From assembly GCA_963835535.1 (NCBI GenBank), contig CAWIFL010000002.1, positions 649,011-713,010 on the forward strand: a stretch of 64,000 nucleotides of DNA. Direction: 5' to 3'. Positions 19,521 through 59,800 of the stretch are shown in pieces. The translations under genes were made by a program, and so were the position numbers. The stretch is from an uncultured Gemmatimonadales bacterium (GTDB taxonomy: Bacteria > Gemmatimonadota > Gemmatimonadetes > Gemmatimonadales > JACORV01). Positions within the stretch are counted from its first letter, which is position 1, and each line of letters begins with the position of its first letter. The notes under the pieces were generated by a model, which did not search any database, was not told where the DNA came from, and was given only the letters and a program-made list of their open reading frames with translations.

Positions 19521-19533
19521 CAGTCTCCCGGTC

Positions 19534-21090: not shown

Positions 21091-21115
21091 GAGCGGCTAC
21101 TGACATTGCGCGCCT

Positions 21116-21170
21116 CTCTTGACGGATGGGGTGACGTGAAGCACATTCACTTTGCCATGCAAAGTACTTT
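21116..21170 (+). promoter_or_regulatory. Candidate promoter/5' element of exporter gene 2 (block shared with 4202-4256)
   Basis: CTCTTGACGG (21116-21125). Its TTGACG ends 32 nt before ATG 21157. TGCAAAGTACTTT follows at 21158-21170. It lies in a 66-bp divergent intergenic region. Confidence 0.4.
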
Positions 21171-24854: not shown

Positions 24855-25903
24855 CGCGCCACCGCTGTCGCGATTGCGGCGGCGTCCCTAGGCAGCACCA
24901 GGTAGCCGGTTACTCCGTCCTCGATCATCTCCGACAGCCCCCCTACTCGGGTCGACACCACGGGAATGCCGGCGGCGTAAGCCATGGCTGTGCTCCCGCT
25001 CTGGGATGCCGTCACATAGGGTTGCACCAGCACATCTGTCGCCGAGACATACGCCTGGAGATCGGCCAGCGGCAGGTAGCGCACGTCGAGGATACAGTTC
25101 TGCGCGCCACAGCTGCGGTCCAGGCGCGCTTCGACCTCTTCCTTGCTGCCCGCGAGTATCGAGCCCGCGATCACGAAGAACGTCTCAGGTTGCAGCCTGC
25201 GAATGAGGGGCAGCGAGTCAATGAAGTACTCCAGGCCCTTGTAAGGCCGGATGTGGCCCAGGAAGCTGATGACGCTCCTGCCCGCGGCGCGTCGTCTCAC
25301 CTGCGCGAGGAGACCCTGGTTCGCCGGGCACGCCGCGAACAGCGGTCCGTAGTCGCCGTGGGGGATGACCGATATCTTGCCGGCGCTGATACCCGCCCGG
25401 TCCACGATCTCCCGCCGGGTATACTCGCTTAAGGCTATCACGTGGTCGACCTGCTGGTAGATCCGCGTGAAGGACCTCACGTGCCCCGGCTTGAACTCCT
25501 GCGGAAAGGGGTTGTGGGCCGTGTAGACGACCTTACGTCCCATCAGGCGAAGGGTCCGGATCACCCACCGATCGACCGCCGGCCAGGGTGCCCACATGAC
25601 GTGAACGAGCGTGATGCGCCTGATCAGCACGTACGACAGCAGCATCACCCAGTCGAGAGGGTACTCAAGCGCCCGCAGCGCTCTCCGCACAACGGCGGAT
25701 GTCGTGATCCGTCCCGCCGCCCACGCCACGAGGAAGAAGGGGCGTATGACTCGCAAGCGCGGGGGATCAGGAAGCCCCTCGTAGGGAAATCTGGTGGTGG
25801 CGTAAACGACGGCCGCGCCGTTCCGTGCCAGATGCGACAGCAGGCAGAAATTGTAGTTCGCGGAGAACAGAGCGGGGTCCACCACCAAGTAGCTGGGAGT
25901 CAT
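24728..25903 (-). CDS. GT4 glycosyltransferase
   Basis: ATG 25903 (MTPSYLVVDPA) forms an ATGA overlap with the upstream stop. C-terminal QPYVTASQSGSTAMAYAAGIPVVSTRVGGLSEMI signature. The rest of the 565-aa ORF upstream is antisense read-through. Confidence 0.75.
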   Translation of the reverse strand: MTPSYLVVDPALFSANYNFCLLSHLARNGAAVVYATTRFPYEGLPDPPRLRVIRPFFLVAWAAGRITTSAVVRRALRALEYPLDWVMLLSYVLIRRITLVHVMWAPWPAVDRWVIRTLRLMGRKVVYTAHNPFPQEFKPGHVRSFTRIYQQVDHVIALSEYTRREIVDRAGISAGKISVIPHGDYGPLFAACPANQGLLAQVRRRAAGRSVISFLGHIRPYKGLEYFIDSLPLIRRLQPETFFVIAGSILAGSKEEVEARLDRSCGAQNCILDVRYLPLADLQAYVSATDVLVQPYVTASQSGSTAMAYAAGIPVVSTRVGGLSEMIEDGVTGYLVLPRDAAAIATAVARCLEGDTRAWMARNARQLQRERYGWEAIAAQTLSVYKQVTGT

Positions 25904-27102
25904 GTCTGTGGGGACGGAGCGCGGTGATCCAGCTGCGTACCGAGGATCGCCGACAGGCGGGCCACCCCCGCGGAGAACGAAAAGCGCTGCACGTAGAGAG
26001 TCTGAATCCGTCGGCGCGTCGCAAGGTCCGGCGGCGCCAGTCGCACGCGCTCCAGCGCGGCGACACACTCGTCCGGCCAGCGAAACACCTGGAGCAGCGG
26101 ACTCGGAAGCAGGTCCGCGTACCCACGCGCCGATACCGCGTGACTGACGACCGGCAAGCCGCAGCGCAGGCCGTCGCTCACCCGCAACTTCAACCCGCTG
26201 CCCAGGCGGAACGGCGCGACGTAGACATCGGCGTGCCGGACGACGGCATCCATCTCCCCGGGATCCGGCACCAGGCGGACACCGGCCTGCGCCACCAACC
26301 GTCGGACCTTGCTGGTCGGCGCACGCCCGGCCACAGTCACCATCACGTCCGGCACCCGGGCCTTGAGCCGCGGGTAGATTTCCGTGAGGAACCAAGCCAC
26401 ACCGTCCACGGTCTGCGCATCGCACAACGATCCCGTGGTCACGACATGGAATGGCCGCCTGTCCGGCGACTCCACATCCGGCGTGGTTGGCGACAATCTG
26501 TCGAAGCGGGCAAAGGTCCCGAGGACCTCCGTGGCCCGGCCTTCTGCCATCCCATACAAGTCACGCAGGCGCTCCTGGTCCTCACGGGTCATCGCCAAGT
26601 TGATGGAGCTGTGGTGCACGGCCATCCGCTCGTTCTTCCTGATGACGTGGACGAGCCGGGGACGGAGGAGGACATTCGATTCAGTGCTGGCGATGTAGTC
26701 AACTTCCACGTTATGATGCACCGTCACCACGGGAATGCCCATACCAGCCAAGCGGGGGGCGAAACGGCCGATTCGCGAGCGGTCGAGCAGGGCGAGCGCA
26801 GGAAGCTCCTCGGCGGCCGAGAGCCACCGGTCCACGAACGGAGACAGCAAGTCGTAACCGCGCGCTGTGGCGAGCCACCACACCTTCTGCCAGGTGCTGC
26901 GACGCGGGACCACGACGTACCGGCCGGCGGGCCTGGGCAAGGGGACACTTTGCAGCTCCTCTCGTCCGATGATCGTCAGGCAGGCTCCATACAGGTAGCT
27001 CATGGCCTGCAGCAGCGCCACGGTATGCTGCACGCCTCCGCCGCCCGAGGTTCCGGACGCCGTGAGGAACCAGACCGCCCCCCCCCGATGCACGTCAGGC
27101 AC
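25900..27102 (-). CDS. GT-B fold glycosyltransferase (GT1/GT4-like)
   Basis: 400-aa ORF. The C-terminal half reads VVTTGSL...VDGVAWFLTEIYPRL...VTVAGRAP...DVYVAPFRLGSGLKLRVSDGLRCGLPVVS, typical of Glyco_trans_1-type domains. Confidence 0.6.
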   Translation of the reverse strand: MPDVHRGGAVWFLTASGTSGGGGVQHTVALLQAMSYLYGACLTIIGREELQSVPLPRPAGRYVVVPRRSTWQKVWWLATARGYDLLSPFVDRWLSAAEELPALALLDRSRIGRFAPRLAGMGIPVVTVHHNVEVDYIASTESNVLLRPRLVHVIRKNERMAVHHSSINLAMTREDQERLRDLYGMAEGRATEVLGTFARFDRLSPTTPDVESPDRRPFHVVTTGSLCDAQTVDGVAWFLTEIYPRLKARVPDVMVTVAGRAPTSKVRRLVAQAGVRLVPDPGEMDAVVRHADVYVAPFRLGSGLKLRVSDGLRCGLPVVSHAVSARGYADLLPSPLLQVFRWPDECVAALERVRLAPPDLATRRRIQTLYVQRFSFSAGVARLSAILGTQLDHRAPSPQT

Positions 27103-28435
27103 GGAGCCTCGCCAGGACCCTGGCGAACACGTCCTTCTCCGCTGCCGTCACCCAAGCGACCCGCCAGCGAAACCCGGTCCTCCCGTGCACGTAGGCGAGT
27201 GTCAGAACAGTCATCAGGATGCCTCCGAGGACGTTCCCCATCGCCAGCCCCTTCGCCCCCTCGAGCCTCCCCAGGATCACATAGCAGGCGAGCGTTCCCA
27301 GCGCCGAAGGCAGCACCGCCAGGAAAAAGACCTCCTGGATCCGGTGGACAACGGTGCCATAGGAAATGAGCGGTCGGAAGGTGTTGTACAAGCACAGCCC
27401 CGCGACGATGTAGAACCCCAGCGTGTAGATCTCTTCGACGTCTCTTCCGACAACGATCTGGATCGCAAGCCGACCCAGGAGGGCATACGCCACCAAAACC
27501 GCGAGGCTCACGAGGAAGCAGTACTTGACGAAGAGGAACGTGATCTCATCCTGGCGCCGCGCGTCCTGGGTGTGGCTGAGCCCCAACGTCGCGTTGTACT
27601 GGAGGATCTGGGGCACGACCTTGGTGAAGTTCCCCATCTGCAGGGCGATGTTGTAGTTCCCCACGGTGCGGAACGGTGCCCCCAGCCAGCCGAGGATCAG
27701 GAGGTCCGCCCGGTAGATGACGTTGGTCATGACGCCGATCAGGTGTGACCAGAGCGAGAAGCCGACCAGGCTCTCCAGGATCAACCGGCGGCTGCCAGAG
27801 CCGCCGAGAACGCCACGCAGGGGGAAGATCCTCCTCGCGTATCCGGCCGTCAGCGCCAGGCCGACAAACGCGACCGCCGCGTTCTTCACCGAAACGTAGA
27901 GCGCGGTGGGCACCAGGAGCGCCCCCGCCGACACGGTGATGTTGGTCACCGAGGACACCAGGTTCACCCTGGTGAGCATCGCCTGGCGGAAATCCACGTT
28001 GAGCAGGGTCGTGAATGGCTCGGCCACGTACAACAGCATGATGGATAGGGCGTTCACGGCCAGAACCAGGAGCATGGCGGGATCGTCATACCTGCGATAC
28101 AGGAAGAGGCCGATCCCCACGCTTAGGACCAGGACCACGAGGCACTTCGCGAGCGCGAACAGCACGAACGCTCGCATGTACTCGCGGATCCGCCCCTTGA
28201 CCTTCTCGTAGTCGCGCAACAGGACGGCGCTCACGCTCACGTTCAGCATGTTGAAGATCACGCCGTAGCTCAGGACGACGGACAGCATCCCGTACTCCTG
28301 CCGCGTGAGCGAGCGCACAATCAGCGTCGTCACGACCAGGACCGTGATGACATCGAGCGCCCGCTGGATCCCCATGTTCAGGATGGACAGCCCGACATTG
28401 TCGCGAAGGGACGGGCGCGTCCCGGCGTCCGTCAT
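27095..28435 (-). CDS. Wzx-type polysaccharide flippase (MOP superfamily) 2
   Basis: Intact polytopic ORF of about 12 TM segments. ATG 28435 (MTDAGTRPSLRDNVGLSILN) forms an ATGA overlap with the upstream acetyltransferase stop. Confidence 0.75.
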   Translation of the reverse strand: MTDAGTRPSLRDNVGLSILNMGIQRALDVITVLVVTTLIVRSLTRQEYGMLSVVLSYGVIFNMLNVSVSAVLLRDYEKVKGRIREYMRAFVLFALAKCLVVLVLSVGIGLFLYRRYDDPAMLLVLAVNALSIMLLYVAEPFTTLLNVDFRQAMLTRVNLVSSVTNITVSAGALLVPTALYVSVKNAAVAFVGLALTAGYARRIFPLRGVLGGSGSRRLILESLVGFSLWSHLIGVMTNVIYRADLLILGWLGAPFRTVGNYNIALQMGNFTKVVPQILQYNATLGLSHTQDARRQDEITFLFVKYCFLVSLAVLVAYALLGRLAIQIVVGRDVEEIYTLGFYIVAGLCLYNTFRPLISYGTVVHRIQEVFFLAVLPSALGTLACYVILGRLEGAKGLAMGNVLGGILMTVLTLAYVHGRTGFRWRVAWVTAAEKDVFARVLARLRA

Positions 28436-29070
28436 GTCCCGCCGGCGGACCGGTTCTCCCACCGGCCCGTGAGATGGTTGTAACGCTTGACGATCGCTGC
28501 GGGATTGCCAGCGACCACGCAGTAGTCAGGCACGGGCACGGTGACGACGGCGTTGGCCCCGACGACGACGTTGCGCCCGAGGGTCACGCCGCCGAGCACG
28601 CAGGCGCCGCGCCCGATCCAGCTCCCCCGTCCGATCCGGATCGGTCCGGTGCTAAAAGGCTGCTGCTCCTTGATCGGCCTGTGAATGTCATCGTAGCCGT
28701 GATTCCCGTTGATGAGCTGGACGAAGGCCGCGAACAGGCAATCATCTTCGATCACGATTTCGTCGAAGGAGGCGACGACGTGCGCGAACCCGTTCGCGAA
28801 CCGGACGTTCTTGCCGATGACGAGCCGGCTCGCAGGCGTCGCCAGCAGGTGCGTGTACTCATCGAACTGGCAGTTGTCGCCGATCGAGATGTTTTCCGGG
28901 CACGAGATCTTCACGCTTCTCGGAATGACAGGGCCGTAGTGCCTCCCCCACCCGATGTTGTCTCCGTAGGCTCCGAAGATCCGTCGGTAGTACGGAAGGA
29001 ACACGAGGCGATACGGAACCCGGAGCAACCGATTGCCGATCCGTCGCGCCAGGCTGTTCGTCAGGAACAC
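28432..29070 (-). CDS. Hexapeptide-repeat (LbH) O-acetyltransferase
   Basis: Left-handed beta-helix repeats: IGDNCQF, IGKNVRF, IGRGSWIGRGACVLGGVTLGRNVVVGANAVV. Confidence 0.8.
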   Translation of the reverse strand: MFLTNSLARRIGNRLLRVPYRLVFLPYYRRIFGAYGDNIGWGRHYGPVIPRSVKISCPENISIGDNCQFDEYTHLLATPASRLVIGKNVRFANGFAHVVASFDEIVIEDDCLFAAFVQLINGNHGYDDIHRPIKEQQPFSTGPIRIGRGSWIGRGACVLGGVTLGRNVVVGANAVVTVPVPDYCVVAGNPAAIVKRYNHLTGRWENRSAGGT

Positions 29071-29117: not shown

Positions 29118-29951
29118 CTACATCGCCTTCGAGAACACCAGCACCCTGGTACTAACGTCCGCAGGCAAGACCTTGGCAAGCGAGTAGTCAAGCGCCGAGC
29201 ATGCACGATCGAGACTGCGCCACCGCAGCCGATCCACCATGAGCTTGAGGATCGCGTAGTAGGCCTGGAACTTAAAGACACTCACCAGCGTCATGCTCCG
29301 CCGCTCGAACTCGCGAACGATCTCTTTGAAGTAAAAATGGTTGACGTGCGCTCCCGGATGGTGATTGTACGGCTGAGCTTTCCACCGAAGGGTCTTCCAA
29401 TTGACGTCGTGCAGAACTGAATATCCGCCAAAGACCGACGGCACGATGACCAGGCAGAGGCCGCCGCATGGGAGCATGGTGCCGATCCGGTCCAGCCATA
29501 GCCGATACTCGACAATGTGCTCGAGGACCGAGTCCAGCAGAACTACCGAGAAACATCCGTCGAGGTCAATGTCCGGAAAACGGCCCGAGATGAAGTGGAT
29601 GTTGCGCAAGCCTTCGGCATCGGCCAGCACCGCTCCGCATCGGATGGCGTCCCCGTCGACATCCAGACAGACGAACTCCCTCGGGCATTGCCTGGCCAAC
29701 TCGCGCGTCACGCTCCCTGTTCCGCCGCCAATGTCAAGAACCGGGAGGGCGATGTCGCAGCCGTGGACCTGACGCACCAGGAATTCGACCTTCTTCCTCT
29801 GTATGTAATTGAGCGTAGGCGCGAACAAGGCCTGTAGCTGCTCATCGCTGAGCGAGGATATCGACCAGCCATAGACGCGAGTCCACGGCGCGGCGACGTT
29901 CTTCTCCTGCAGAATGCGGCGGATCTCACCCAATGCGGCGGACGCTCTCAT
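29118..29951 (-). CDS. Class I SAM-dependent methyltransferase
   Basis: SAM motif I VLDIGGGTGSVTRELA, with downstream acidic and motif II/III residues. ATG 29951 forms an ATGA overlap with the upstream stop. Confidence 0.75.
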   Translation of the reverse strand: MRASAALGEIRRILQEKNVAAPWTRVYGWSISSLSDEQLQALFAPTLNYIQRKKVEFLVRQVHGCDIALPVLDIGGGTGSVTRELARQCPREFVCLDVDGDAIRCGAVLADAEGLRNIHFISGRFPDIDLDGCFSVVLLDSVLEHIVEYRLWLDRIGTMLPCGGLCLVIVPSVFGGYSVLHDVNWKTLRWKAQPYNHHPGAHVNHFYFKEIVREFERRSMTLVSVFKFQAYYAILKLMVDRLRWRSLDRACSALDYSLAKVLPADVSTRVLVFSKAM

Positions 29952-30823
29952 CTGCAAGCACCGTTCATGGCCATCGGAGCCTCGATCCGGCACACTGCGT
30001 CCCATCGCAGCGTCTCTCCCTTGCCCAGTCGGGCCATGGGATAGGCGCTCGGCGAAAAGACGCGAGCGAGCCTGCCCCGCCATGGGCGCCGCTCACCGCG
30101 GTACCACAATGCCTCCCTGAAGAGCGGCACCGCCAGCAGCGGAGCGCTCACGATCCGTGGCAACGACCGCGTACCGAACCACCGGGAGCACAGCTTGATC
30201 ACTTCCCTATCCCAGGACCCCGGCAGCATCCGGAGGTGGAGCGTCCAGGCGCCGTCGCCATCGCGGAGATAGACGTGAGCCCTCATGCGGGCCGGCACGG
30301 TCGCTCCGACGGCCACGACGCGCACGGAGAAGCGGTCGTTTCCGACGGAGGCCTCTTCAACCGGGTACTGGTAGTGCACGCGACTCTCGGCGTACGGCAG
30401 GGCGCGGCCGGCGATATATCCCCTGGGGAACCAGGAGGCTAGAAATCGATAGCGCAGGACGAAATCCATCAGCGTGGTGTCTTCCAGGCAGGTCAGCGTG
30501 CACGTCCGGCGGAACGCGCGCGGCCCCTCCAGCCGCTCCGCAAGCTCCAGTCGAACCATCCCCTCCCGCAGTCGCACGATCTGGAGCAGATCGCGACCAT
30601 CGCCCCTGGTCGTTGCCTGCTCCTCGAGCAACTCGTACCGGTACCCGACGCCGTCCTCCAGGGAGTAGAACGCCGACGAGTCGGCGAACTCGACGCCCCA
30701 GGGTAGAATGGCGTTCTGGCCGTCCACGGACAGCTCCCGGAGGGCCCTCCCCCCGTAGACCGGGCCGGAAAACTCCGGCAACGGAGGAGCCGCGCGCGTC
30801 TCGGCAGCGCCGCCGGCCGTCAC
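29948..30823 (-). CDS. Hypothetical protein, no recognisable family
   Basis: 291-aa ORF with GTGA and ATGA coupling to both neighbours, coding-like composition, no signal peptide and no TM segment. Confidence 0.55.
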   Translation of the reverse strand: MTAGGAAETRAAPPLPEFSGPVYGGRALRELSVDGQNAILPWGVEFADSSAFYSLEDGVGYRYELLEEQATTRGDGRDLLQIVRLREGMVRLELAERLEGPRAFRRTCTLTCLEDTTLMDFVLRYRFLASWFPRGYIAGRALPYAESRVHYQYPVEEASVGNDRFSVRVVAVGATVPARMRAHVYLRDGDGAWTLHLRMLPGSWDREVIKLCSRWFGTRSLPRIVSAPLLAVPLFREALWYRGERRPWRGRLARVFSPSAYPMARLGKGETLRWDAVCRIEAPMAMNGACR

Positions 30824-31734
30824 TCCAGGCTCCCACCGACGAGCAGCTGCGCGTACCGCAGCCAGGCCTTGCCGTTGCCCTTCCAGAGCGCGATGGACCT
30901 CCTAAGGGCCGTTTTGGCGAGATCACGGTCGCCCGCCAGGGCCGCCCGGTGAGCCAGCCAGCGGTACTTCTCCGAGAGGTTCTTGGTCATGCCCGTCCGC
31001 TCGTAGAGAGCCGCATGCTTCGCGTAGCATCGATGGAATCCTTCGAGCGCCCCGGGCGAGGTGCCGATCCTCGCCCTGCCGTGCTTGTGATGCAGAGCCA
31101 GCACTTCCTGCGCCAGATCCACGTCGTACCCGGCCTCGGCGATTCGCGTCCACATGTCCCAGTCCTGACAGCTCGGCAGGCTTTCGTCGAACCATCCCGC
31201 CCTCTCCAGCACCGCGCGTCGGACAACGACCGTGGGCGAAGGGACGAAGCACGCATCCAGCAGTTCCGCGAGGACGCACCCGCGGTGGGCGGCGCGGTAC
31301 CGCTCCAGGACGGTGCCGTCCTCGTCCACGGCGTCCGCCCATGCATAGACCAGTCCCAGCCGTTCCCCCGAGGCCCGCACCACCGCCGCCTGCCGCTCGA
31401 GCTTGGCCGGCAGCCATTCGTCATCATCGTCCACAAAGGCGACCAGCTCCCCCTGCGACTCCGCGATGCCCCGGTTCCGGCAATACTGGGCGCCCCGGTT
31501 CTCCTTGTTTCTCAGGAACCGCAGCGGAAAGTCCCTAGAGAACTGCGCCTCGACGCGCTCGTAGGCCTGGCGGTCCGCCGATGCGTCGTCAACGACCACG
31601 ACGTCGAAGTCCCTGAATGACTGGCGCCGGATGGACTCGAGCAGGCGCGCCAGGAAGTCCGCACGGTTGAAGCTCGGGATCACGACGCTGAACAGGCTCA
31701 CGGAAGCACCCCGAGACGCAGACGGACCGTGCAT
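30820..31734 (-). CDS. GT2 glycosyltransferase
   Basis: FSVVIPSFNRADFLARLLESI, VVVVDDASAD and VAFVDDDDEW (DxD) motifs. Alternative start at GTG 31701, which forms a GTGA overlap with the upstream stop. Confidence 0.8.
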   Translation of the reverse strand: MHGPSASRGASVSLFSVVIPSFNRADFLARLLESIRRQSFRDFDVVVVDDASADRQAYERVEAQFSRDFPLRFLRNKENRGAQYCRNRGIAESQGELVAFVDDDDEWLPAKLERQAAVVRASGERLGLVYAWADAVDEDGTVLERYRAAHRGCVLAELLDACFVPSPTVVVRRAVLERAGWFDESLPSCQDWDMWTRIAEAGYDVDLAQEVLALHHKHGRARIGTSPGALEGFHRCYAKHAALYERTGMTKNLSEKYRWLAHRAALAGDRDLAKTALRRSIALWKGNGKAWLRYAQLLVGGSLE

Positions 31735-33269
31735 CGCGCCGACGGCTCCCGCGCGACCAGGACCTGCAGCGGCCCGCCCCAGTAATACTCCCGGGTCGGC
31801 TGAATCTCCATGGGCACCGAGAACTCCACGACCGCACCGCCGCGGACGACGAAGGTGCGCTCGTCCCGGCGCAGCACCTGGTCGAACAGGTAGCGCGCGA
31901 AGGGCTTCCCCGCACCGAGCATCAAGTCCTGCACGACGATTCCATCGTCCGCGAAGCGGAACCGCCGCACCAGAAGCCCCCGCAGCGTCAGAACCACCAA
32001 GCAGTTGCCCAAGAAGAGCGACCACAGGCGTCCGTCCCGCAACAGCCGGCGGCGCCCCCTTCGCTCGATCGCCGGTAGGGGAATGCCGGCCGAGGAGTAC
32101 AGCGTGGAACCAAACTGCTCGCCACCGTACGAGGGAGTGACTCGCTTCCCGTTCCACACCACGTACGGAAACGGCAAGTCGTTCGTCCAGTAACCGCCTC
32201 CCCCGCCCCAGCCTCCGCCCGGCCGCGATACGACCGCCTCATAGCTGCGGGTGCGCGACACCAAGAAGTCGCGGTCCCGGTAGCCGGCCGGCGGCGGGGC
32301 CTGCTCGCGGGGAGGCGCCCCGTCGAGCACGTCCGCGGCCTTCCCCAAGAAGACGCCCAGAAACGGGAGGTAGTCGAAGTAGTTGTTGTAGGCGTACCAT
32401 CCCGGGAACCGGGGATCGCCGGCCGCCTCCGAAGGCGGATATCCTTCCTCGACTTCGTTCAGCACCAGCGGGAAGCTCCCATCGGAACGCCGGTGACCTT
32501 CCAGGTAGGCTACGCATCGCGCGAGGGCCGACAAGTGGCGGGGGGTCCCGAACTGCCGGTACGCGATCGCGAGGAGGCAGGCGAGCGCCCCGTAGCCGAA
32601 CGACTGCTCTTGTCCCCGCCCCACGTAGAGCGTGTCGCCCGTCCGAAGAACGAAGGGCTCGATGAAGTTCGCCGCGTGGCGGAAGCGGTCCAGGAAGAAC
32701 GGCTCCCCCCCAAGCGCGTGGATCTCCGCGACCAGGACGGCCGAGAAGCAATGGTACTGGAAGCTGCGCACGTTCGGCTGGTCGCAAATCAGCCCGGACC
32801 GCGACTGGCAGCGGCGGAGGACGTCGGCCGCCGCGCGCGACGCCTCGGCGGTCTCGATGCCGGCCAGGTGGCGCGTGCACGATCGCAGGAGCGCCCAGTT
32901 CGTTACGGGCGTGCCTCGAAACCGGAGCGGTAGCGCAAGTTCCTTCACTGCCTGATCGCCGGTCGTCCGGTACAGAGAGCACCAGGCGTACTTGTTGAAC
33001 TCCCAATGGAAGGACGGATCCTCCTTGTCCTTCTCGCGGTAGAGGTCGAACAGCCGCGGCACCAAGGAGGCATATGGCGAGCCCGGCTGCCCGAGCAGTA
33101 GCGCCGAGAACGATTCGCCGTAGAAGGAGCGCGCGGGCAGCTTCCCATGCGAGAGCAGCACGCCGTGGAGGTAGCTCGCTATGCCATCGGACAGACCGCG
33201 AAGGCGCCGGGCGAGGCCGACGGGCGCCGCCCAATCTTCCGCCGGAGCCATCGGTGGAGGCCCGGTCAT
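31698..33269 (-). CDS. Hypothetical 523-aa cytoplasmic protein, possibly alpha/alpha-toroid plus beta-sandwich (heparinase II/III-like)
   Basis: ATG 33269 forms an ATGA overlap with the upstream stop. No signal peptide. Helical N-terminal two-thirds with SDGSFPLVLNE and WYAYNNYFDYLPFLG, and a beta-rich C-terminal third. The family assignment is only an impression. Confidence 0.4.
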   Translation of the reverse strand: MTGPPPMAPAEDWAAPVGLARRLRGLSDGIASYLHGVLLSHGKLPARSFYGESFSALLLGQPGSPYASLVPRLFDLYREKDKEDPSFHWEFNKYAWCSLYRTTGDQAVKELALPLRFRGTPVTNWALLRSCTRHLAGIETAEASRAAADVLRRCQSRSGLICDQPNVRSFQYHCFSAVLVAEIHALGGEPFFLDRFRHAANFIEPFVLRTGDTLYVGRGQEQSFGYGALACLLAIAYRQFGTPRHLSALARCVAYLEGHRRSDGSFPLVLNEVEEGYPPSEAAGDPRFPGWYAYNNYFDYLPFLGVFLGKAADVLDGAPPREQAPPPAGYRDRDFLVSRTRSYEAVVSRPGGGWGGGGGYWTNDLPFPYVVWNGKRVTPSYGGEQFGSTLYSSAGIPLPAIERRGRRRLLRDGRLWSLFLGNCLVVLTLRGLLVRRFRFADDGIVVQDLMLGAGKPFARYLFDQVLRRDERTFVVRGGAVVEFSVPMEIQPTREYYWGGPLQVLVAREPSARCTVRLRLGVLP

Positions 33270-34321
33270 TCGGGAGGCCTTCCCGCGCGGCGCCGCACGC
33301 GAGCGATCGCGTCCAGCCACTTCTTCTTCCAGTCCTGGTAGCCGTGGTGTCGCACCACGTACTCGCGGGCCCGCACGGAGAAGACCGCGTGCGCGGCTCG
33401 AATCGTGGGGAGCCGGTCCGCAAACTTCTGCGCTACAGTTTCCCAGGGGCCACCCACAACGAATTCCGGGATCTCGCGCGCGATATCCGGTCCGGCGCCG
33501 ACCGACGTCATCACGATGGGCGTGCCGCACGCCATGGCCTCGAGCGCCACGATGCCGCACCCTTCGAAACGGCTAGGAAGGAGCAAGACGCTGTAACGGG
33601 TGTAATACGAAGGCAGCTCCTCGTTGGGGACGTTGCCGAGCCAGCCAAGCCGGGAGTCGCGCGGCCGGACCGAGGTCACGCAGTCGATGGGTACGCCAGC
33701 GTCGGCCAGCTTCCCGAGGATGTCAAACCCCTTCCCGAAGTAGTCGGAAGAACCGACGAACAGACACCGCTGGCTCTTCGGGATGTCCGGAGCGGGTCGG
33801 AACCGTTCCACATCTATGGCGTTGTCTATGACCATGTCCACGTGGACGCCCTGCTCTTCGAGCACGCGCGCGAGGGTGCGCGAGACCGCGACCACGTATT
33901 TCCCGCTGGCCCCGATCTTCTGCTGGTCCGCCAGCCGCATCAGCCCGCGGTACCTGCGCTCGGCGATCCAGGGACGCAACGCCCTGGCATATCCGAAGTA
34001 GCAACCGTGAAAGGTGTTGACCGCCGCCGGGTGGCGCACGCCGAAGCTGAACTCGCCGTTGCAGATGACCACGTCAGTGTTCGCCGAGTGATGCCGGGCA
34101 AAGTGACGGGCCAGCAAGCGGTTGAGCCCAAAGAGCCTCTTCTTCAACCGAACCAACGCTCCGCCGCCGATGGCCTCCTGGCTTATGACTCGAGTCTCGA
34201 ACCCCTCCTGGTCCAGCATCGCGACCAGCATCGCGTTCACCGTCTCGACGCCGCCGTGATACCTGGCGTGAGGCGTCAGAACGGCCACCGATGGACGTCT
34301 CGCGGACGGCTCCGGGATCAT
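33266..34321 (-). CDS. GT4 glycosyltransferase
   Basis: ATG 34321 (MIPEPSARRPSVAVLTP) forms an ATGA overlap. C-terminal LLPSRFEGCGIVALEAMACGTPIVMTSVGAGPDI signature. Confidence 0.8.
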   Translation of the reverse strand: MIPEPSARRPSVAVLTPHARYHGGVETVNAMLVAMLDQEGFETRVISQEAIGGGALVRLKKRLFGLNRLLARHFARHHSANTDVVICNGEFSFGVRHPAAVNTFHGCYFGYARALRPWIAERRYRGLMRLADQQKIGASGKYVVAVSRTLARVLEEQGVHVDMVIDNAIDVERFRPAPDIPKSQRCLFVGSSDYFGKGFDILGKLADAGVPIDCVTSVRPRDSRLGWLGNVPNEELPSYYTRYSVLLLPSRFEGCGIVALEAMACGTPIVMTSVGAGPDIAREIPEFVVGGPWETVAQKFADRLPTIRAAHAVFSVRAREYVVRHHGYQDWKKKWLDAIARVRRRAGRPPE

Positions 34322-35280
34322 CGGAGGCCCCAGCGCCGCAGCGCCTGGCCCACGTAGTGCCTCGCCAGGCGCCCGACCACGTGTGCCGCGACGAAACGAC
34401 CCTGCATGTACAGGATGGGCGCCCGTATGCCCAGCCGGTCGCGAATCACGCCGCGATGCCTCCGGAGCACCTTCCAGTTGTTCCGGCAGGCCCTCCATTC
34501 ATATCCGATCGGGGTCGTAGAGGCGCGGCAACCGCCTCCGTCCCGGGTTCGCGTGAGGTCCACTAGGACCGGACGGACGCAGGCGATCATCCGGAATCCC
34601 GCGGCGATCGCCTTCAGCTGGAAATCGGTTTCGTCCCGGTAGCCGCTGGTTCCGAGCGTCTCGTCGTAGCTCACCCTGTCGAGCACGGCCCGGCGCATCA
34701 GCATCACCCCGCAAGCCAGCGGCGTGACGACCGAGGCCGGAAACGTCGTAGCGGCGAGCACGCTTCGCGAACAAAGCTCCAGCGTGTGCCGGTGGAACAG
34801 CGGCGGCGCCCCAGCCGCGGACGCGGCGATCGACGGCAGCCCGTCGAGCACCGCCGACTCCGGAAGGATGTGGAGCGGCGCTGCGATATCGGCGTCCTGC
34901 GCCTCCATCTCCCGTGACATGATCACCAGCCCCTCGTCTGGCACCGGCAGCATGTCGTCATCTGCGAAGAACACCAGCGGCGCCGTCGCTTCGCGCGCGC
35001 CCGCGTTCCGCGCGGCGGATGGCCCCAGATTCGTTGGGAGATGAACGCATGTTAGGTGCATGCCCCGTCGCGCCTCATCCTCGAGCCACTGCCGCGACCC
35101 ATCGGTGCTACCGTCGTTGACCACGATGACGCGACGAACCTCCGGTCGTCGGAGGTAGAAGGCCGCGACTCGCGGCAATGCCCACAGCCGGTTGTAGGTG
35201 GGAATTACGACGTCTATGACGCCCGCCAGGCCCGTGTTCACCCCCTGCGGCGCAGTGCGGTGCTCGTCCCGATGGGCCAT
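34318..35280 (-). CDS. GT2 glycosyltransferase
   Basis: IDVVIPTYNRLWAL, VIVVNDGSTDGS and FFADDDM motifs. Intact 320-aa ORF. Confidence 0.8.
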   Translation of the reverse strand: MAHRDEHRTAPQGVNTGLAGVIDVVIPTYNRLWALPRVAAFYLRRPEVRRVIVVNDGSTDGSRQWLEDEARRGMHLTCVHLPTNLGPSAARNAGAREATAPLVFFADDDMLPVPDEGLVIMSREMEAQDADIAAPLHILPESAVLDGLPSIAASAAGAPPLFHRHTLELCSRSVLAATTFPASVVTPLACGVMLMRRAVLDRVSYDETLGTSGYRDETDFQLKAIAAGFRMIACVRPVLVDLTRTRDGGGCRASTTPIGYEWRACRNNWKVLRRHRGVIRDRLGIRAPILYMQGRFVAAHVVGRLARHYVGQALRRWGLR

Positions 35281-35284
35281 CGCA

Positions 35285-36037
35285 CTAGATGAGGTGCTTC
35301 CTGAGGCCGTGCCACGCGTAGCTGACCATCATCCGCGCCGACGCGACGAGGCCGAGCCCCTCCCGTCTTCGATAGATGCCCCAGGTCATTAGATACCCGC
35401 GCACCTTGTTCGCGGAGAGCGAATTGGCCCGCACGCGATAGATCGTCAGCGGCTCCGGCATGCCATAGGCCCTGTGCCCTTCGTGGAGAATCTCCAGCCA
35501 CAGCGCATAGTCATGGGACCGGCGCAAGTCAGGGAAGAACCGGGGTCCGAGCACGTTCCTGTCAAGCATGACAGTCGAGCATCCGATGGCATTCGTCCCC
35601 AGCAGGGACTTGTAGCTCACCTGCAACGGCGGACGGAACACGCGACCGGACAAAACACCGTCTTCCGAGGACTTCTCGTAGGCGGTGTAGCTGAGAGCGG
35701 CCCCCGTCACCTCCATGAGGGCAAGCTGCCGGGCGAGCTTCTCGGGCCTCCAGAGGTCATCCGCGTCGAGAAAGGCGACAAACCTGCCCTGCGCCAGCTT
35801 CAACCCGTGGTTGCGCGCGGCGGCTCCGCCTCGCGGGTGAGCCAGACGTTCCAGGCGCACCCGGGGATCCTCCCCACTATGCTCGAGCGCGATCGCCGCC
35901 GAGTCGTCTCGGGACCCGTCATCTATAACCAGCAGCTCCCAATCCCTGAACGTCTGCCCCTGGACCGATCGTATCGCCACGTCCAGCCAGCGACCGGCGT
36001 TGTGGCACGGGGTAATGACGGAAACCAGGGGCGTCAT
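35285..36037 (-). CDS. GT2 glycosyltransferase
   Basis: ATG 36037 (MTPLVSVITPCHNAGRWLDVAIRSV). LLVIDDGSRDDS and FLDADDLW motifs. As assembled, the upstream gene reads into it without a stop. Confidence 0.75.
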   Translation of the reverse strand: MTPLVSVITPCHNAGRWLDVAIRSVQGQTFRDWELLVIDDGSRDDSAAIALEHSGEDPRVRLERLAHPRGGAAARNHGLKLAQGRFVAFLDADDLWRPEKLARQLALMEVTGAALSYTAYEKSSEDGVLSGRVFRPPLQVSYKSLLGTNAIGCSTVMLDRNVLGPRFFPDLRRSHDYALWLEILHEGHRAYGMPEPLTIYRVRANSLSANKVRGYLMTWGIYRRREGLGLVASARMMVSYAWHGLRKHLI

Positions 36038-37049
36038 GACCCCCGCCCCCAACACCACGGTCACGATGATAATGGGCAAGTAAGCGATCATCACTCCCAG
36101 CGATCCGTCCAGCGATCCCCGCGCGACCAGTACGGCGAGGGGCAGCAACCAGCAGAGATTGATGACGCCGACCGAGATGGTGACCGGCCGGTGCGCGCCC
36201 CACAACTGGGCCGCGTGCTGGTAGGCGTGGCTCCGGTGCGCCTCGTAGAACCTGTCGCCCCGCGCCACACGGCGAATCAGCGTCACCGTAGCGTCTACCA
36301 CGAAGACACCGAGCAGTACCGCCCAGCTCCAGAAGAGCCGGGGCGCCAGCCAGCCCGCCTGCAGCGAGAGCGCCGCCAGCATCAGCCCGAGAAAGCCGCT
36401 GCCGGAATCGCCCATGAAAATCTTCGCCGGGGGCCAGTTCCAGACCAGAAAACCCGCGGTCGCCGCCGCCAGCACCAGCGGGACAAGCCACTGTGAAGAT
36501 CCCGGGGCCGCGATGAGGGCAGACAGCACGCCGCCCAAGCAGACCGTGATCCCCTCGACGCCGGCGATGCCGTCTATGCCGTCCATGAAGTTGGTGAGGT
36601 TGAGCAGCCACACCAGGTACAGGGCTGCGAGAACGTAGCCGACAAAGCCGAAGTGGTGCTCCGACCCGAGCAGCGGGACGGGCGGCATACCGCCCAGCCA
36701 CACTAGGATCCACCCAGCGGCGACGAAAGGGCGCCAGCAGGCGCCACTGCGGCGCGATGTGCCGATGGTCGTCCACCGCGCCGATCGCGGCGACGATCGC
36801 CCCTCCGCCCGGAAGGCCCCACACCACGGACCAGTCCTCGAGGCCCATCCACCCCAGCACCGGCAGTGCGGCCAGCGTGGTCAGCGCGATGGCGATCCCG
36901 CCGCCGCGCGGCGTCGGCCGCGTGTGCGAGCTGCGCGCGTTGGGGAGATCCATCACCTCGCGGCGGACGGCGTAGCGCTGCGCCGCGCCGGCCAGGAGCC
37001 AGCTCAATGCCGCCGCCGCGGCGCCAAGGAACAGCCAGTGAAGACTCAC
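36038..37049 (-). CDS. Polyprenyl-phosphate N-acetylhexosamine-1-phosphate transferase (WbpL/WecA/MraY family, GT4-PNPT); one internal frameshift and no stop as assembled
   Basis: GTG 37049 forms a GTGA overlap with the epimerase stop. The N-terminal part carries MDLPNARSSHTRPTPRGGGIAI. After a frame switch near 36725-36735 it continues NLTNFMDGIDGIAG...FMGDSGSGFLG. Confidence 0.75.
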
Positions 37050-38042
37050 GCCGACGGCATCCGCCGGGCCCGAAACCAGGCCGCGGTCGCGGCCAGACCC
37101 GCTGACAGGCTGTGCGGCGGGACGTACCCGGTTCTCCTCAGCCGCGTCGAGTCGAGGACCAGCGAACCGGTCAGACCGTCCATGCCGTTCGCACTTATCC
37201 CGATAGGCACCACTCGCGAAACAAGCTCCGCGATCACTCCCCCCAGTCGCAGCAGCGCCGGCGGCACGGCCACCAGGCGGGCCGGGACATCGAGGGCCTG
37301 CGCGACCGCCCGCACGAGAAGCGGCGTGGACACGATCTCGGGGTCCGCAACCACGTACGTGCCCTCCGACCTCCCGTCGGCCAGAACCGCGAGCAGCGCC
37401 GCAACGAGGTTGCCGACGAACAGCATGCTGCGCTGGTTCCTGACGGCGCCCACGGGGATCGGAAGCCCACGGTCCACGACCTGGAACAAGCCGAAGCAGG
37501 TTGCCCTTCATGCCCGGCCCGTATACGAGCGGAGGGCGGAAGATCAGCGCTCTCATCCCGGCGCCGGCGGCCACTTCACGCACCAGGCCCTCGGCCTCCA
37601 GCTTGCTCACGCCGTACGCGCTGACCGGCGCCGGCGCCGTCGCTTCGTTGACGGGCCGCTCACTCTTCCCGCACGTCGCGGCGATAGAGCTCATGAAGAG
37701 GAAATGCCGCACGCCAGCGCGCTCCGATTCCTCGAGCAGCGCCCGCGTGCCCTCCACGTTGACGCGCCGGAATTCGTCGGACCTGAGGGCGTCCCGGATC
37801 ACGACGTGGACCGCACCCGCCAGGTGGACGACGGTACGCACGCCGTCCAGCGCAGCGCCGAGCGCGGCGCGATCGAGCAGATCCCCGGAGACGGCCGCGA
37901 CACCCGCCGGAAGTGACGTGGCGGGTGGCAGCACGAGCGCGCGCACCCTCATCCCGGAGCCGACGAGCGCCCGCGAGACGTGCTGGCCGATGAAGCCGGT
38001 GGCGCCCGTGACGAGCACAACGTCACCGCCGTCGCCTGCCAC
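37046..38042 (-). CDS. NAD-dependent sugar epimerase/dehydratase (extended SDR); one frameshift as assembled
   Basis: VLVTGATGFIGQHV, SSIAA and YGVSKLEAE motifs in the first frame. The C-terminal 147 aa (FQVVDRGLPIPVGAVRNQRSMLFVGNL...) lie in ORF 37046-37489. The switch is near 37483-37493. Confidence 0.75.
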
Positions 38043-38043
38043 G

Positions 38044-39048
38044 TCAGCTCCCACCCCCTGTCGGGCGCCCCGCTTCGAGCGCCTCCCGAATCCAGGCGGC
38101 CGTCTGGTCAACGCCCTGCTGGAGTGTGTAAGGGAGCGGGCCGCAGATCTCCTGCGTCGCCGACAGATCCAGCTGGTAAGCCGTCAACACGTTGTTAAGT
38201 CGGAATGTGTTGAACGGGAATCGACGAGCTCCGGCGAGGTTCAGAAGGTCCCCGACGTGCGCGGCCGTCCTGGCGACCATCAGGGGCATGGTACGGATCG
38301 GCGGGCCGCCGAGAGCGAGCCTAAACCGCTCCGCCCAATCTTCAATCGCGAGCGGCTCGTAGTCGGCGAGATAGAACACCCGGCGATGGATCCTCGCCGG
38401 CGGCGCCTCGGCCAGTCGCAGGTATTGGTGCACGACGTTGCCGATGTAGCCGTAGGATTTGCGGGTCGGCCCTCTGCCGACGTGGAAGTAGCGTCCGTCG
38501 CGCAGCATCCGGAAGAAGCGCAGATAGTGCGGGTTCATTCGCGCGCCCCAGATGGTCGTGGGACGCACCAGGCACCAGGGCACACCTCCGCCGTCGCCGG
38601 CGCGGACGATCTGCTCGGTGCGCACCTTGCTCCGGCCATACTGCGTGGTCGGGCAGTAATCCCCGTCGTGCGCCGCACGGTAGCCGATCCGGCACACCAG
38701 CTGCGTGGACGTGCACACGAACCGGCGCACGCCCGGCGTTGCGCCGATCGCCGCCACCAGGTGCTCGACACCGGCGATGTTGGCGGCGTATCCTGTTTCG
38801 AGATCGGCGTGCTCGTCGAGATCGGTCCGTGCGGCGAGGTGAAAAATGACTTCCGGTTGGAACCGCTGCAGTTGACCCGTCAAGCCAGGGAGGTCGAGCA
38901 GGTCGCAGTCACGCTGCTCCACGCCCTCGATCGGCGTGTGACCAGTCCGCCTGTCGAGCCCGAGAACCTGATCGCCGCGGCGCGCCAGAGCGTCCGCGAG
39001 GTGACTCCCGATGAAGCCTGAGGTACCGGTCACCAGCACCCTGGTCAT
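38044..39048 (-). CDS. NAD-dependent sugar epimerase/dehydratase (extended SDR)
   Basis: ATG 39048 (MTRVLVTGTSGFIGSHLADAL). YGRSK catalytic motif. First gene of the long minus-strand operon. A GGGGAG Shine-Dalgarno-like element lies 13 nt upstream. Confidence 0.8.
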   Translation of the reverse strand: MTRVLVTGTSGFIGSHLADALARRGDQVLGLDRRTGHTPIEGVEQRDCDLLDLPGLTGQLQRFQPEVIFHLAARTDLDEHADLETGYAANIAGVEHLVAAIGATPGVRRFVCTSTQLVCRIGYRAAHDGDYCPTTQYGRSKVRTEQIVRAGDGGGVPWCLVRPTTIWGARMNPHYLRFFRMLRDGRYFHVGRGPTRKSYGYIGNVVHQYLRLAEAPPARIHRRVFYLADYEPLAIEDWAERFRLALGGPPIRTMPLMVARTAAHVGDLLNLAGARRFPFNTFRLNNVLTAYQLDLSATQEICGPLPYTLQQGVDQTAAWIREALEAGRPTGGGS

Positions 39049-39202: not shown

Positions 39203-40193
39203 ATGTCCGTGGAACGCGTCTTGATAGCGGGAGGAGGAGGGTTCATCGGCGGGCACCTCGCCGCTGAATTGCGCCGCCGGGGATGCGCCGTCCGAGCCGT
39301 GGACATCAAGCCAATCGAAGAGTGGTATCAGGTCTTCGACGATGTGGAGAACGTCGTCGCCGACCTCAAGCTCCGGGAGGCATGCGAGCGTGCCTGTCGC
39401 GGCGTCGACACCGTGTATCAGCTCGCGGCCGACATGGGAGGCATGGGCTTCATCGAGAACAACAAGGCGCTGTGCATGCTCTCAGTGCTCATCAACACCC
39501 ACATGCTCCAGGCGGCCCGCGCGGCCGGGGTCAGCCGGTACTTCTACTCCTCTTCGGCGTGCGTGTACAACGCAGACAAGCAGACGCTCGACCAACGTCG
39601 TGCCTCTCAAGGAGGAAGACGCCTATCCCGCGATGCCCGAGGACGGCTACGGGTGGGAGAAGCTCTTCTCGGAGCGGATGTGCCGGCATTTCCGCGAGGA
39701 CTTCGGCTTCCCACGCGCGTGGCCCGGTTCCACAACGTCTACGGCCCGCTTGGCACGTGGGACGGCGGACGGGAGAAGGCTCCCGCGGCGATTTGCCGGA
39801 AGGTCATTCACGCGCTGGAGAACCGGCGAGAACGGCATCGAGATCTGGGGCAGCGGGGAGCAGACGCGTTCGTTCATGTACATCGACGACTGCATCAAGG
39901 GCATCCTGCAAATTACGGCCAGCGACATCATCGAGCCCATCAACCTCGGATCCAACGAGCTCGTCACGATCAACCAGCTCGTGGACATCGTCGAGGACAT
40001 CGCCGGCGTGAAACTCGAGCGCCGCTACAACCTCGCGGCCCCGAAGGGCGTCAACGGACGCAACTCCGACAACACGCGCATCAAGAAGCTCCTGGGATGG
40101 GAGCCGTCCATTCCCCTGCGCACGGGCATGGAAACCACTTATCGCTGGATTCACGACGAATACGTGAAAGCCAACGGCGCCAAGCGTTCGTGA
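39203..40193 (+). pseudogene. GDP-mannose 3,5-epimerase homologue; three frameshifts as assembled
   Basis: Segments in alternating frames together reproduce the GME pattern: RVLIAGGGGFIGGHL, LAADMGGMGFI, SSSACVY | NVVPLKEEDAYPAMPEDGYGWEKL | RVARFHNVYGPLGTWDGGREKAPAAICRK | IEIWGSGEQTRSFMYIDDC...GRNSDN. Switches lie near 39590, 39712 and 39820. Confidence 0.75.
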
Positions 40194-44098: not shown

Positions 44099-44161
44099 CC
44101 ACTCGAGGACACCAGCGGAGCGACGATTGCAATACGATTCTCGGCGACCCACATTTCACGC

Positions 44162-49014: not shown

Positions 49015-49024
49015 TCCCGCGCCC

Positions 49025-57111: not shown

Positions 57112-57205
57112 GCCAGCAACTGTGGGGTCCCGCCCGCCGATACCCTGGGTTGCACGGTTGAGTCTCCCATCCTCAACGAGTCTTGAGGTCGGACATTGGA
57201 TCGCA

Positions 57206-59792: not shown

Positions 59793-59800
59793 CTCTCCAT

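Follow-up and report, generated by a model that had tools for sequence, protein, structure and literature searches.

Two family-less proteins with predicted lyase-like and mutarotase-like folds in a Wzx-linked glycan-assembly cassette

Two genes without a sequence family in a glycan-assembly operon

The 64-kb stretch of DNA analysed here (contig CAWIFL010000002.1, positions 649,011 to 713,010; hereafter the window, G+C ~68%) stems from an uncultured Gemmatimonadales bacterium and carries on its minus strand a long glycan-assembly operon, located at ~24.7–39.1 kb. Two genes of this operon, here denoted A and B, encode cytoplasmic proteins of 291 and 523 amino acids (aa) that are probably carbohydrate-active and alter an intracellular sugar chain by a hitherto undescribed activity. 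In the direction of transcription, the operon starts with two epimerase/dehydratase genes of the short-chain dehydrogenase/reductase (SDR) type, a WecA/WbpL-type phosphotransferase joined to a family 2 glycosyltransferase (GT2), and another GT2. A family 4 glycosyltransferase (GT4), B, a GT2 and A follow in the middle, and the operon ends with a methyltransferase dependent on S-adenosylmethionine (SAM), a hexapeptide acetyltransferase, a Wzx-type flippase and two GT1-type transferases. The genes that matter for the following are:

31698..33269, minus strand: protein B, 523 aa; predicted alpha/alpha toroid (residues ~16–315) and beta-sandwich (~335–518), polysaccharide-lyase-like fold, no sequence family
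29948..30823, minus strand: protein A, 291 aa; predicted all-beta supersandwich, galactose-mutarotase-like, no sequence family; putative partner of B and of the GT2
30820..31701, minus strand: GT2 between B and A (GT2_31), with a helical C-terminal tail; Pfam PF00535 at 1.5e-27
33266..34324, minus strand: GT4 (GT4_34); Pfam PF13692, PF00534 and PF13439
34318..35280, minus strand: GT2 (GT2_35); Pfam PF00535 at 1.2e-21
29118..29951, minus strand: SAM-dependent methyltransferase; Pfam Methyltransf_25/23/31; ATGA overlap with the stop of A
28432..29070, minus strand: hexapeptide-repeat acetyltransferase; Pfam PF00132; nearest NCBIfam model WbbJ, below its cut-off
27095..28462, minus strand: putative Wzx-type flippase; hydropathy with ~8 hydrophobic segments; orthologues match Polysacc_synt
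25900..27102, minus strand: GT1-type glycosyltransferase downstream of Wzx; Pfam PF13692

A preliminary description of this DNA had pointed to A and B as two tightly coupled open reading frames (ORFs) of the minus strand, and both were recovered at these positions. Five successive junctions, from GT2_35 through the methyltransferase, are 4-bp ATGA/GTGA overlaps, and one more such overlap joins the acetyltransferase and wzx. The longest ORF for B reaches position 33560 (620 aa), but the start at 33269, which yields the 523-aa form, is the credible one because its ATG overlaps the stop of the upstream GT4 gene and because homologues of 476–530 aa cover 81–99% of this shorter form. Spurious ORFs, a concern at high G+C, were ruled out by the existence of homologues, by a G+C content at third codon positions (GC3) of 0.80 for both genes and by confident structure models; database relatives with 35–70% identity numbered 197 for B and 47 for A. 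Neither protein has a signal peptide or a transmembrane segment, as had been proposed, and the sole hydrophobic stretch of B (residue 416) corresponds to a pair of beta-strands in the confident model. Thus, A and B are real, translationally coupled genes for soluble proteins.

The setting had previously been called a Wzx/Wzy operon. The Wzx part of this label stood, whereas the only Wzy_C gene of the window lies ~10 kb away on the other strand (43904–45619). The Wzx protein of the window itself matched no Pfam or NCBIfam model and, judged by its hydropathy and its orthologues, appears to be a divergent flippase; an ATG overlapping the acetyltransferase stop implies that its gene starts near 28435. 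None of the cassette glycosyltransferases scored above the cut-off of an NCBIfam model, so their donor sugars cannot be named.

Sequence searches with A and B

Both proteins had been described as lacking a family, and this status persisted in searches with Pfam, NCBIfam and PDB-sequence profiles, none of which assigned either protein to a characterized family. The window proteins had no match in Pfam and NCBIfam even at E = 0.1–1. Lenient Pfam scans of 40 diverse A relatives returned nothing meaningful and those of 10 distant B relatives nothing useful, whereas 50 close B relatives gave solely sub-threshold toroid matches, namely Pec_lyase (16 of 50) and DUF2264 (9 of 50). C5-epim_C, the C-terminal model of glucuronyl C5-epimerases, was seen in three of these 50 with a best E of 0.0099, well short of the cut-off, and DUF4962 was not matched by B. 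Hidden Markov models (HMMs) built from the A family, the B family and the B superfamily retrieved no relevant PDB sequence, for B no lyase at E up to 10, and tblastn of A and B against the plasmids of PLSDB gave no match.

The source names of the relatives were all “hypothetical” or “uncharacterized”, except for one automated label “Heparinase II/III-like”. An exhaustive HMMER search for A recovered 277 clusters among 1.84 billion representatives, nearly all of them stand-alone proteins of ~260 aa. In the literature we found no description of either family; on heparinase-like families linked to Wzx, only the untested GnlB/WeeF and a “heparinase” marker gene of Shigella boydii 20 turned up.

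A and B are inherited together in a mobile cassette

A motif scan of one genome per species yielded 62 loci with B relatives (locus numbers are given with the prefix L), whose six-frame ORFs were searched with HMMs, and a reciprocal scan of metagenome contigs for A yielded 38 loci. A was located on the same strand within 10 kb of B in 19 of 19 close-B loci that had upstream sequence. Conversely, B was present in 22 of the 38 A loci, and 15 of the 16 loci without it were short contigs or cut next to A, leaving L089 as the one genuine exception.

The close-B loci also share clear orthologues of the GT4 of the window (170–300 bits in most), of the GT2 following B (200–250 bits) and of Wzx. Considering all loci, GT4_34 orthologues scored 170–430 bits and were located directly upstream of A in most other cassettes, those of GT2_31 mostly scored 200–265 bits, with a maximum of 411 bits among the closest relatives, and those of Wzx scored 130–340 bits. 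GT2_35 has weaker counterparts of 35–97 bits in most cassettes (264 bits in L073), and a similar GT2 often heads the cassette; weak counterparts of the GT1 downstream of Wzx (25–71 bits) stand at the end of many. The acetyltransferase was found in approximately half of the cassettes, while the methyltransferase is particular to the version in the window and absent from its 61%-identical relative, L067. Nucleotide-sugar genes are not part of the conserved core.

Cassettes agree in their gene set but not in its order. Most commonly, GT2 and GT4 are followed by A, Wzx, optionally the acetyltransferase, B, GT2, a membrane protein with 10–12 helices and no Pfam family (Wzy-like), and GT1. The order B-GT2-A of the window is shared with L067, L071 and L073; A-B-GT2 occurs in L069, L092, L093 and L095; and in Bacillus (L015, L016), as well as a divergent proteobacterial clade (L034–L039), A is the gene immediately upstream of B. 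In this clade (L035–L039, e.g., L035:9208-11517), with members in the gamma proteobacterium HdN1, Aquabacterium fontiphilum and metagenome-assembled genomes (MAGs), B is split, with the toroid and the beta-sandwich encoded by ORFs in different frames and an A-like gene directly upstream. Hence, the two domains can work as separate polypeptides.

The hosts include Hippea, Sulfurimonas, Nitrospiraceae, Paenibacillus, Neobacillus, Paraliobacillus, Desulfobacteraceae, Povalibacter, Bacteriovoracaceae, Bacteroidales, Chlamydiae and one archaeon of the Hydrothermarchaeota. In Sulfurimonas sp. HSL-3221 (L066, CP087998.1), a PglB/STT3 N-glycosylation locus houses the full cassette (GT2, GT4, A, Wzx, acetyltransferase, B, GT2), together with a sulfotransferase, a FemAB-like acetyltransferase, PglC/E/F-like genes and an AsnB-like gene upstream. 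This locus lacks a Wzy-like gene, which suggests that A and B serve the assembly of the lipid-linked unit rather than polymerization or the control of chain length.

These data identify A and B as a pair co-inherited across distant phyla in a self-contained, horizontally mobile glycan-assembly cassette that comprises GT4, A, Wzx, B and GT2, often with an acetyltransferase as well. We regard this membership, together with the folds presented in the following section, as well supported. The pairing of A with B, the mutarotase-like fold of A, its fusions to GT2 and the clade of B relatives outside the cassette (see below) go beyond the preliminary description.

Predicted fold and conserved residues of B

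The structure of B was modelled by AlphaFold2 from a 50-sequence alignment, with a mean predicted local distance difference test score (pLDDT) of 92.2 and a predicted template modelling score (pTM) of 0.93. Twelve helices form an alpha/alpha toroid (residues 16–315), followed by an antiparallel beta-sandwich (335–518), i.e., the two-domain fold of the polysaccharide lyase (PL) families PL12, 15, 17, 21, 33 and 35. In Foldseek comparisons to the PDB, the best match was the PL33 lyase BtPL33HA (8r72, E 1.3e-10), followed by a chondroitinase, the PL35 GAGases, PL15 Atu3025, PL12 heparinase III, PL8 lyases and a PL21 exo-heparinase. All of the first 23 matches are polysaccharide lyases composed of toroid and sandwich, with E from 1e-10 to 2e-5 and alignments over 570–690 columns. 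The lower matches comprise single-domain toroids (cellobiose and glucose 2-epimerases, glycoside hydrolase (GH) family GH88, AprG) and the phosphorylase region of Cgs, with E of ~2e-5 to 9e-5. A toroid and beta-sandwich reminiscent of heparinases and alginate lyases had been guessed from the sequence before, and the model and the structure searches agree with this guess.

Residues invariant throughout the superfamily include N124, Y172, H173, R218, Q220, Q222, Y294 and Y300; Y292 is likewise invariant on the toroid, as are N124, H173, Y294 and Y300. The invariant Asn, His, Arg, Gln and Tyr residues are positioned at the starts of the helices beginning at 89, 123, 170, 223 and 297.

Lyases with toroid and sandwich (PL33 BtPL33HA, the PL35 GAGases, PL15 Atu3025, PL12 heparinase III, PL21, PL17 and PL8) have the same domains in the same order as B, whose toroid bears invariant Asn, His, Arg and Tyr. 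Some members of this class, the PL15 and PL17 oligo-alginate lyases, are cytoplasmic as well. They differ from B in that no sequence-profile relation exists: B falls outside Hepar_II_III, Hepar_II_III_N, Alginate_lyase and DUF4962. They also differ in genomic setting, B being encoded in glycan-assembly cassettes and not in degradation loci; a uronate is a candidate substrate for B. In its modelled structure, B looks like a lyase of the PL12/15/33/35 type or like the animal dermatan sulfate epimerase 1 (DS-epi1) discussed below, while its sequence matches none of their profiles.

Predicted fold of A and its link to the glycosyltransferase

The AlphaFold2 model of A (pLDDT 93.3) is an all-beta supersandwich. 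Foldseek matched it to domain 5 of beta-galactosidase, to YphB (3nre) and YoxA (3mwx), two putative aldose-1-epimerases that stand alone, to GalM (1nsm), and to the N-terminal domains of GH63, GH65, GH94 and GH38 enzymes, with E of 2e-5 to 3e-3 and template modelling (TM) scores of 0.26–0.47. For YphB, YoxA and GalM, E was 5e-5 to 7e-4 and TM 0.40–0.47, a moderate match to the supersandwich fold. A thus shares its predicted fold with aldose 1-epimerases and galactose mutarotase-like proteins (GalM, YphB, YeaD) and with the N-domains of GH63, GH65 and GH94; it resembles YphB (291 aa) in size and has a conserved constellation of His, Glu, Glu, Tyr and Arg (E45, Y185, H196, R198 and E244, all invariant). 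However, neither A nor its 40 diverse relatives matched the Aldose_epim profile (Pfam PF01263), so that A looks like a supersandwich of the aldose-1-epimerase type by model and lies outside that family by profile. E45, H196 and E244 would at most be candidate equivalents within the His/His/Asp/Glu catalytic set of mutarotases. Moreover, the substrate of a mutarotase, a free reducing sugar, is not an obvious intermediate in the assembly of lipid-linked glycans, the setting of A. The possibility that A is a paralogue of the beta-domain of B was rejected, given an hhalign probability of 0.8%.

Two of the 277 A clusters are fusions with GT2 in opposite orders, GT2-A (P0197) and A-GT2 (P0202), and both architectures also occur in contigs with the expected neighbours (L074, L086). 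Fusion in both orders is good evidence, at the level of gene architecture, that A works physically with the GT2 of the cassette, GT2_31.

Supersandwich domains are usually accessory in glycosidases. A and B might accordingly be non-catalytic subunits that bind carbohydrate or act as a scaffold, tethering GT2, GT4 and flippase to one another or presenting the acceptor. The fusions of A to GT2 would fit such a role, as would a Desulfovibrio relative even more distant than the ~620-aa clade described below (L062:9143-12685), whose 1181-aa protein joins a B-like domain to a GT1 domain at its C-terminus. Yet the polar and charged residues of B (N124, R129, D163, H173, R218, Q220, Q222, Y292, Y294 and Y300) are strictly invariant, and these as well as the five invariant positions of A persist at ~20% identity, which is typical of active sites; in addition, a clade of B exists that has no glycosyltransferase partner at all. 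We therefore consider a non-catalytic role improbable.

Relatives of B outside the cassette

This clade, with ~40% identity to B, was encountered in nine loci, belonging to Armatimonadota, “Hebobacteria”, one MAG of the Bacillota and further MAGs. Its loci (L023–L025, L027–L032, L068, L070; the B-like gene at ~10 kb in most) contain neither A nor any cassette gene, and B evidently functions there without its partner. In eight of the nine, the B-like gene is divergently oriented beside a ~1250-aa GH38 alpha-mannosidase and one or two SIS genes of the PRK02947 type, and each of the nine has it upstream of a DUF123 gene, after which a transporter of the major facilitator superfamily (MFS) comes in some cases. 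The clade keeps nearly every invariant residue of the cassette clade, which suggests that the chemistry is probably the same in both contexts. An association of the homologues with polysaccharide or glycan loci thus holds for the cassette orthologues and only in part for this GH38/SIS sister clade of B.

A more distant clade of ~620-aa B-like proteins also lacks A and has no Pfam family. A GT1 gene usually adjoins or follows, and an AsnB-like amidotransferase gene is located directly upstream in L047, L049, L050 and L058 (also L046 and L053).

A possible role in uronate editing before export

A cofactor-independent toroid enzyme could plausibly perform either carbanion chemistry beside a carboxylate, as lyases and C5-epimerases do, or chemistry at glycosidic bonds (hydrolysis, phosphorolysis, transglycosylation). 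As the lyase matches of B are approximately five orders of magnitude better in E than the glycosidase folds, we favour C5 chemistry on a uronate, by an epimerase rather than a lyase, and assign this reading a probability of about one in three. The prevalence of Asn, His, Arg, Gln and Tyr among the invariant residues and the weak C5-epim_C matches of three relatives also speak for it. The epimerase or eliminase function put forward for B in the preliminary description is, on this analysis, plausible by analogy with DS-epi1.

In this model, the glycosyltransferases would build an oligosaccharide on a polyprenyl-pyrophosphate carrier from common nucleotide sugars. Ahead of flipping by the co-inherited Wzx, B would then remodel a residue of the lipid-linked oligosaccharide at the cytoplasmic face by abstracting the C5 proton of a hexuronic acid in the manner of the lyases and C5-epimerases of this fold. 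Epimerization to an L-hexuronic acid appears likelier than chain cleavage because the cassette builds glycans and does not degrade them. A, docked to the GT2, might supply part of a binding or active site or act as a second enzyme. Editing before export would then comprise acetylation, methylation (in this window) and the activity of A and B.

A lyase-fold enzyme with a biosynthetic task is known. DS-epi1 is a glucuronyl C5-epimerase of the lyase fold used for biosynthesis (PMC8006597, PMC11848413). Like B, it combines a toroid and a beta-sandwich, and its action follows incorporation of the sugar. Among its neighbours in structure, 3A0O, 4MMH and chondroitinase AC (PMC8006597) belong to the same PDB families that B matches. 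Differences concern its location in the Golgi lumen and its long polymeric substrates, whereas the cytoplasmic B would need a short lipid-linked oligosaccharide. Furthermore, DS-epi1 (6HZN) is not among the 50 Foldseek matches listed for B, and DUF4962, the Pfam domain recognized in DS-epi1 (PMC8006597), has no counterpart in B. Any equivalent in B of the His/double-Tyr catalytic motif would be putative.

A parallel in mode of action is Agl32 of Halobacterium salinarum, a glucuronyl C5-epimerase of N-glycosylation that epimerizes glucuronic acid on the lipid-linked glycan before translocation (PMC13308652). Agl32 is of the alpha-helical toroid type, as is the N-terminal domain of B, and the B cassette of Sulfurimonas is likewise found in an N-glycosylation (PglB) locus. 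Compared by description only, Agl32 consists of a single AGE-like helical domain and has no beta-sandwich, unlike B. A third, putative precedent, GnlB/WeeF of the Acinetobacter capsule and emulsan loci, is heparinase-like, falls within the superfamily named chondroitin AC/alginate lyase and resides in a Wzx/Wzy locus, where gene-content correlation ties it to an L-configured hexosaminuronic acid, L-GalNAcA (PMC9676051; bioRxiv 10.64898/2026.07.20.739706). It pairs with GnlA and not, as B does, with a mutarotase-like protein; no Acinetobacter locus appeared in the motif scan for B relatives, and GnlB/WeeF probably represents a different family.

Several observations weigh against uronate C5 chemistry. 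The similarity of B to the lyases is distant, with 9–13% identity (~10%) and TM ~0.5. The catalytic apparatus of the lyase class consists of an Asn/His charge stabilizer and a Tyr on the toroid and of a His and a second Tyr in the beta-domain (PMC11848413), but the latter pair has no conserved counterpart in B, whose beta-domain contains no conserved His. Y226 lies 53 residues past H173, the canonical spacing from His/Asn to Tyr; it was nevertheless set aside as the catalytic tyrosine, as six of the 50 cassette members, among them Bacteriovorax loci with A, have Leu or Met in its place. Conservation also extends to two acidic residues, at E/D90 and D/E163, a pattern equally compatible with a glycosidase. 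The context of the GH38-linked clade looks catabolic or recycling, and related to mannose rather than to a uronate.

The gene content is equivocal with regard to a uronate substrate. Associations with uronate pathways were assessed by phmmer using UDP-sugar dehydrogenase, ManC, AsnB, WbpB and DegT as queries. On the negative side, the 64-kb window has no gene for a UDP-sugar 6-dehydrogenase, only ~11 of ~45 informative loci have one within 10 kb, which is no clear enrichment, and genes for GDP-mannose (ManC) flank several cassettes. In favour of a uronate, in individual cassettes a UDP-sugar dehydrogenase gene adjoins A (Paenibacillus) or B (L022), WbpB/WbpE-like genes are present in the Hippea locus, and an AsnB-like amidotransferase gene lies near the Sulfurimonas cassette.

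Some of these observations would also be accommodated if A and B together formed a split glycoside hydrolase, phosphorylase or transglycosylase-like enzyme with the domain content of GH15, GH65, GH94 or Cgs. Acting on glycosidic bonds together with the GT2, it would trim, proof-read, branch or perform non-Leloir transfer on the lipid-linked oligosaccharide. A resembles the N-terminal supersandwich of GH63 YgjK, GH65 kojibiose phosphorylase, GH94 cellobiose phosphorylase and GH38, and the predicted models of A and B summed give a supersandwich, a toroid and a beta-domain. Cgs, the cyclic-glucan synthase, is a precedent for glycosyltransferase and toroid domains working in the cytoplasm. Weak matches of B to the phosphorylase region of Cgs, GH88 and GH127 at E of ~2e-5 to 9e-5, the acidic positions 90 and 163 conserved throughout the superfamily, the B-only clade beside GH38, SIS and MFS transporter genes, the flanking ManC genes and the missing uronate pathway in the window would all agree with it. 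But the hydrolase and phosphorylase folds trail the lyases in Foldseek by the E margin given above, with TM of only 0.16–0.4, A and B are often non-adjacent, A is fused to GT2 and never to B, A is unrelated to the beta-domain of B by hhalign, and the B-only clade functions without A. Taken together, we judge a split enzyme of this kind unlikely, though it deserves consideration.

Alternatively, B could be a true beta-eliminating lyase of the cytoplasm that clears stalled or aberrant lipid-linked uronate intermediates and recycles the carrier lipid. An analogue would be AlgL, a lyase whose gene belongs to a biosynthetic operon and which reportedly serves in clearance (PMC8829089). The best structural matches of B are indeed all lyases, and the near-identical invariant residues in the catabolic-looking GH38 clade suggest the same degradative chemistry in both contexts. 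This explanation faces the same scarcity of uronate genes (none in the window, present in about a quarter of the loci), and the tight co-evolution of B with one set of GT2, GT4 and Wzx and with a partner fused to GT2 would be unexpected. Its chances appear slim.

A more far-reaching and rather doubtful proposition would be that B and the GT2-docked A found a class of bacterial and archaeal lyase-fold enzymes that edit sugars on undecaprenyl- or dolichyl-pyrophosphate oligosaccharides at the cytoplasmic face before flipping, for instance by C5 epimerization to L-hexuronic acids, as a prokaryotic counterpart of the dermatan sulfate epimerases, with the five- or six-gene cassette as the portable unit. 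The cassette would then install an edited motif in O-antigens, capsules, extracellular polysaccharides and N-glycans across phyla. Prokaryotic routes to L-hexuronic acids in Wzx-dependent glycans, and sugar edits after attachment to the carrier, are largely unsolved; the known glucuronyl C5-epimerases comprise one bacterial and one archaeal enzyme (PMC13308652). What would be new here is the recruitment of a lyase-fold protein and a mutarotase-fold partner into cytoplasmic, Wzx-linked glycan assembly.

Unknown proteins are common in polysaccharide loci, but the A/B pair is set apart by its conservation, its defined structure and its recurrence in cultured organisms. The carriers include cultured Paenibacillus, Neobacillus, Povalibacter, Hippea and Sulfurimonas, which makes the question directly testable. 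Whatever the chemistry, defining the families would remove a recurrent pair of “hypothetical proteins” from glycan loci in many phyla, would give two new Pfam and CAZy families and would possibly explain what the co-inherited Wzx recognizes.

Other features of the window

Two genes upstream of the cassette (35285–38111, minus strand) look frame-shifted. The SDR epimerase in frame from 38111 covers only the first 177 of 240 Pfam positions, and the remainder may reside in another frame, in a high-GC3 ORF at 37046–37507. Similarly, the N-terminal half of the WecA/WbpL-type phosphotransferase is encoded at ~36998–36680 and its C-terminal half from 36880 in another frame, which reads on, with no intervening stop, into a TuaG-like GT2 domain. 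Assembly indels, pseudogenes or a true fusion might explain these apparent frameshifts.

Around the operon, a very large glycan super-locus extends over 17272–23741 and 39203–61826 and probably encodes more than one glycan pathway. In addition to a DUF218 gene, several GT4 genes and a second methyltransferase gene, it includes:

19534–21090: Bac_transf priming transferase
21279–23741, plus strand: Wza-like exporter with five SLBB repeats
39203–41461, plus strand: epimerase-GT1 fusion ORF
43904–45619, plus strand: Wzy_C gene
50519–52210: second Wzx/MATE-like flippase
53992–54939: NeuB
60633–61826: DegT aminotransferase

Two ORFs on the minus strand of this region, 47320–49197 and 49025–50026, have a GC3 of 0.82–0.84 and no Pfam family, and may encode further family-less proteins of the glycan region. 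The former (625 aa) has no NCBIfam match and no membrane segments; the stop-to-stop frames of the two overlap by ~170 nt, and hence their gene boundaries are uncertain. Finally, the G+C content drops to 0.57 at 56001–60000, just past NeuB, compared to ~0.68 elsewhere, and this part may be a recently acquired sugar-pathway segment.

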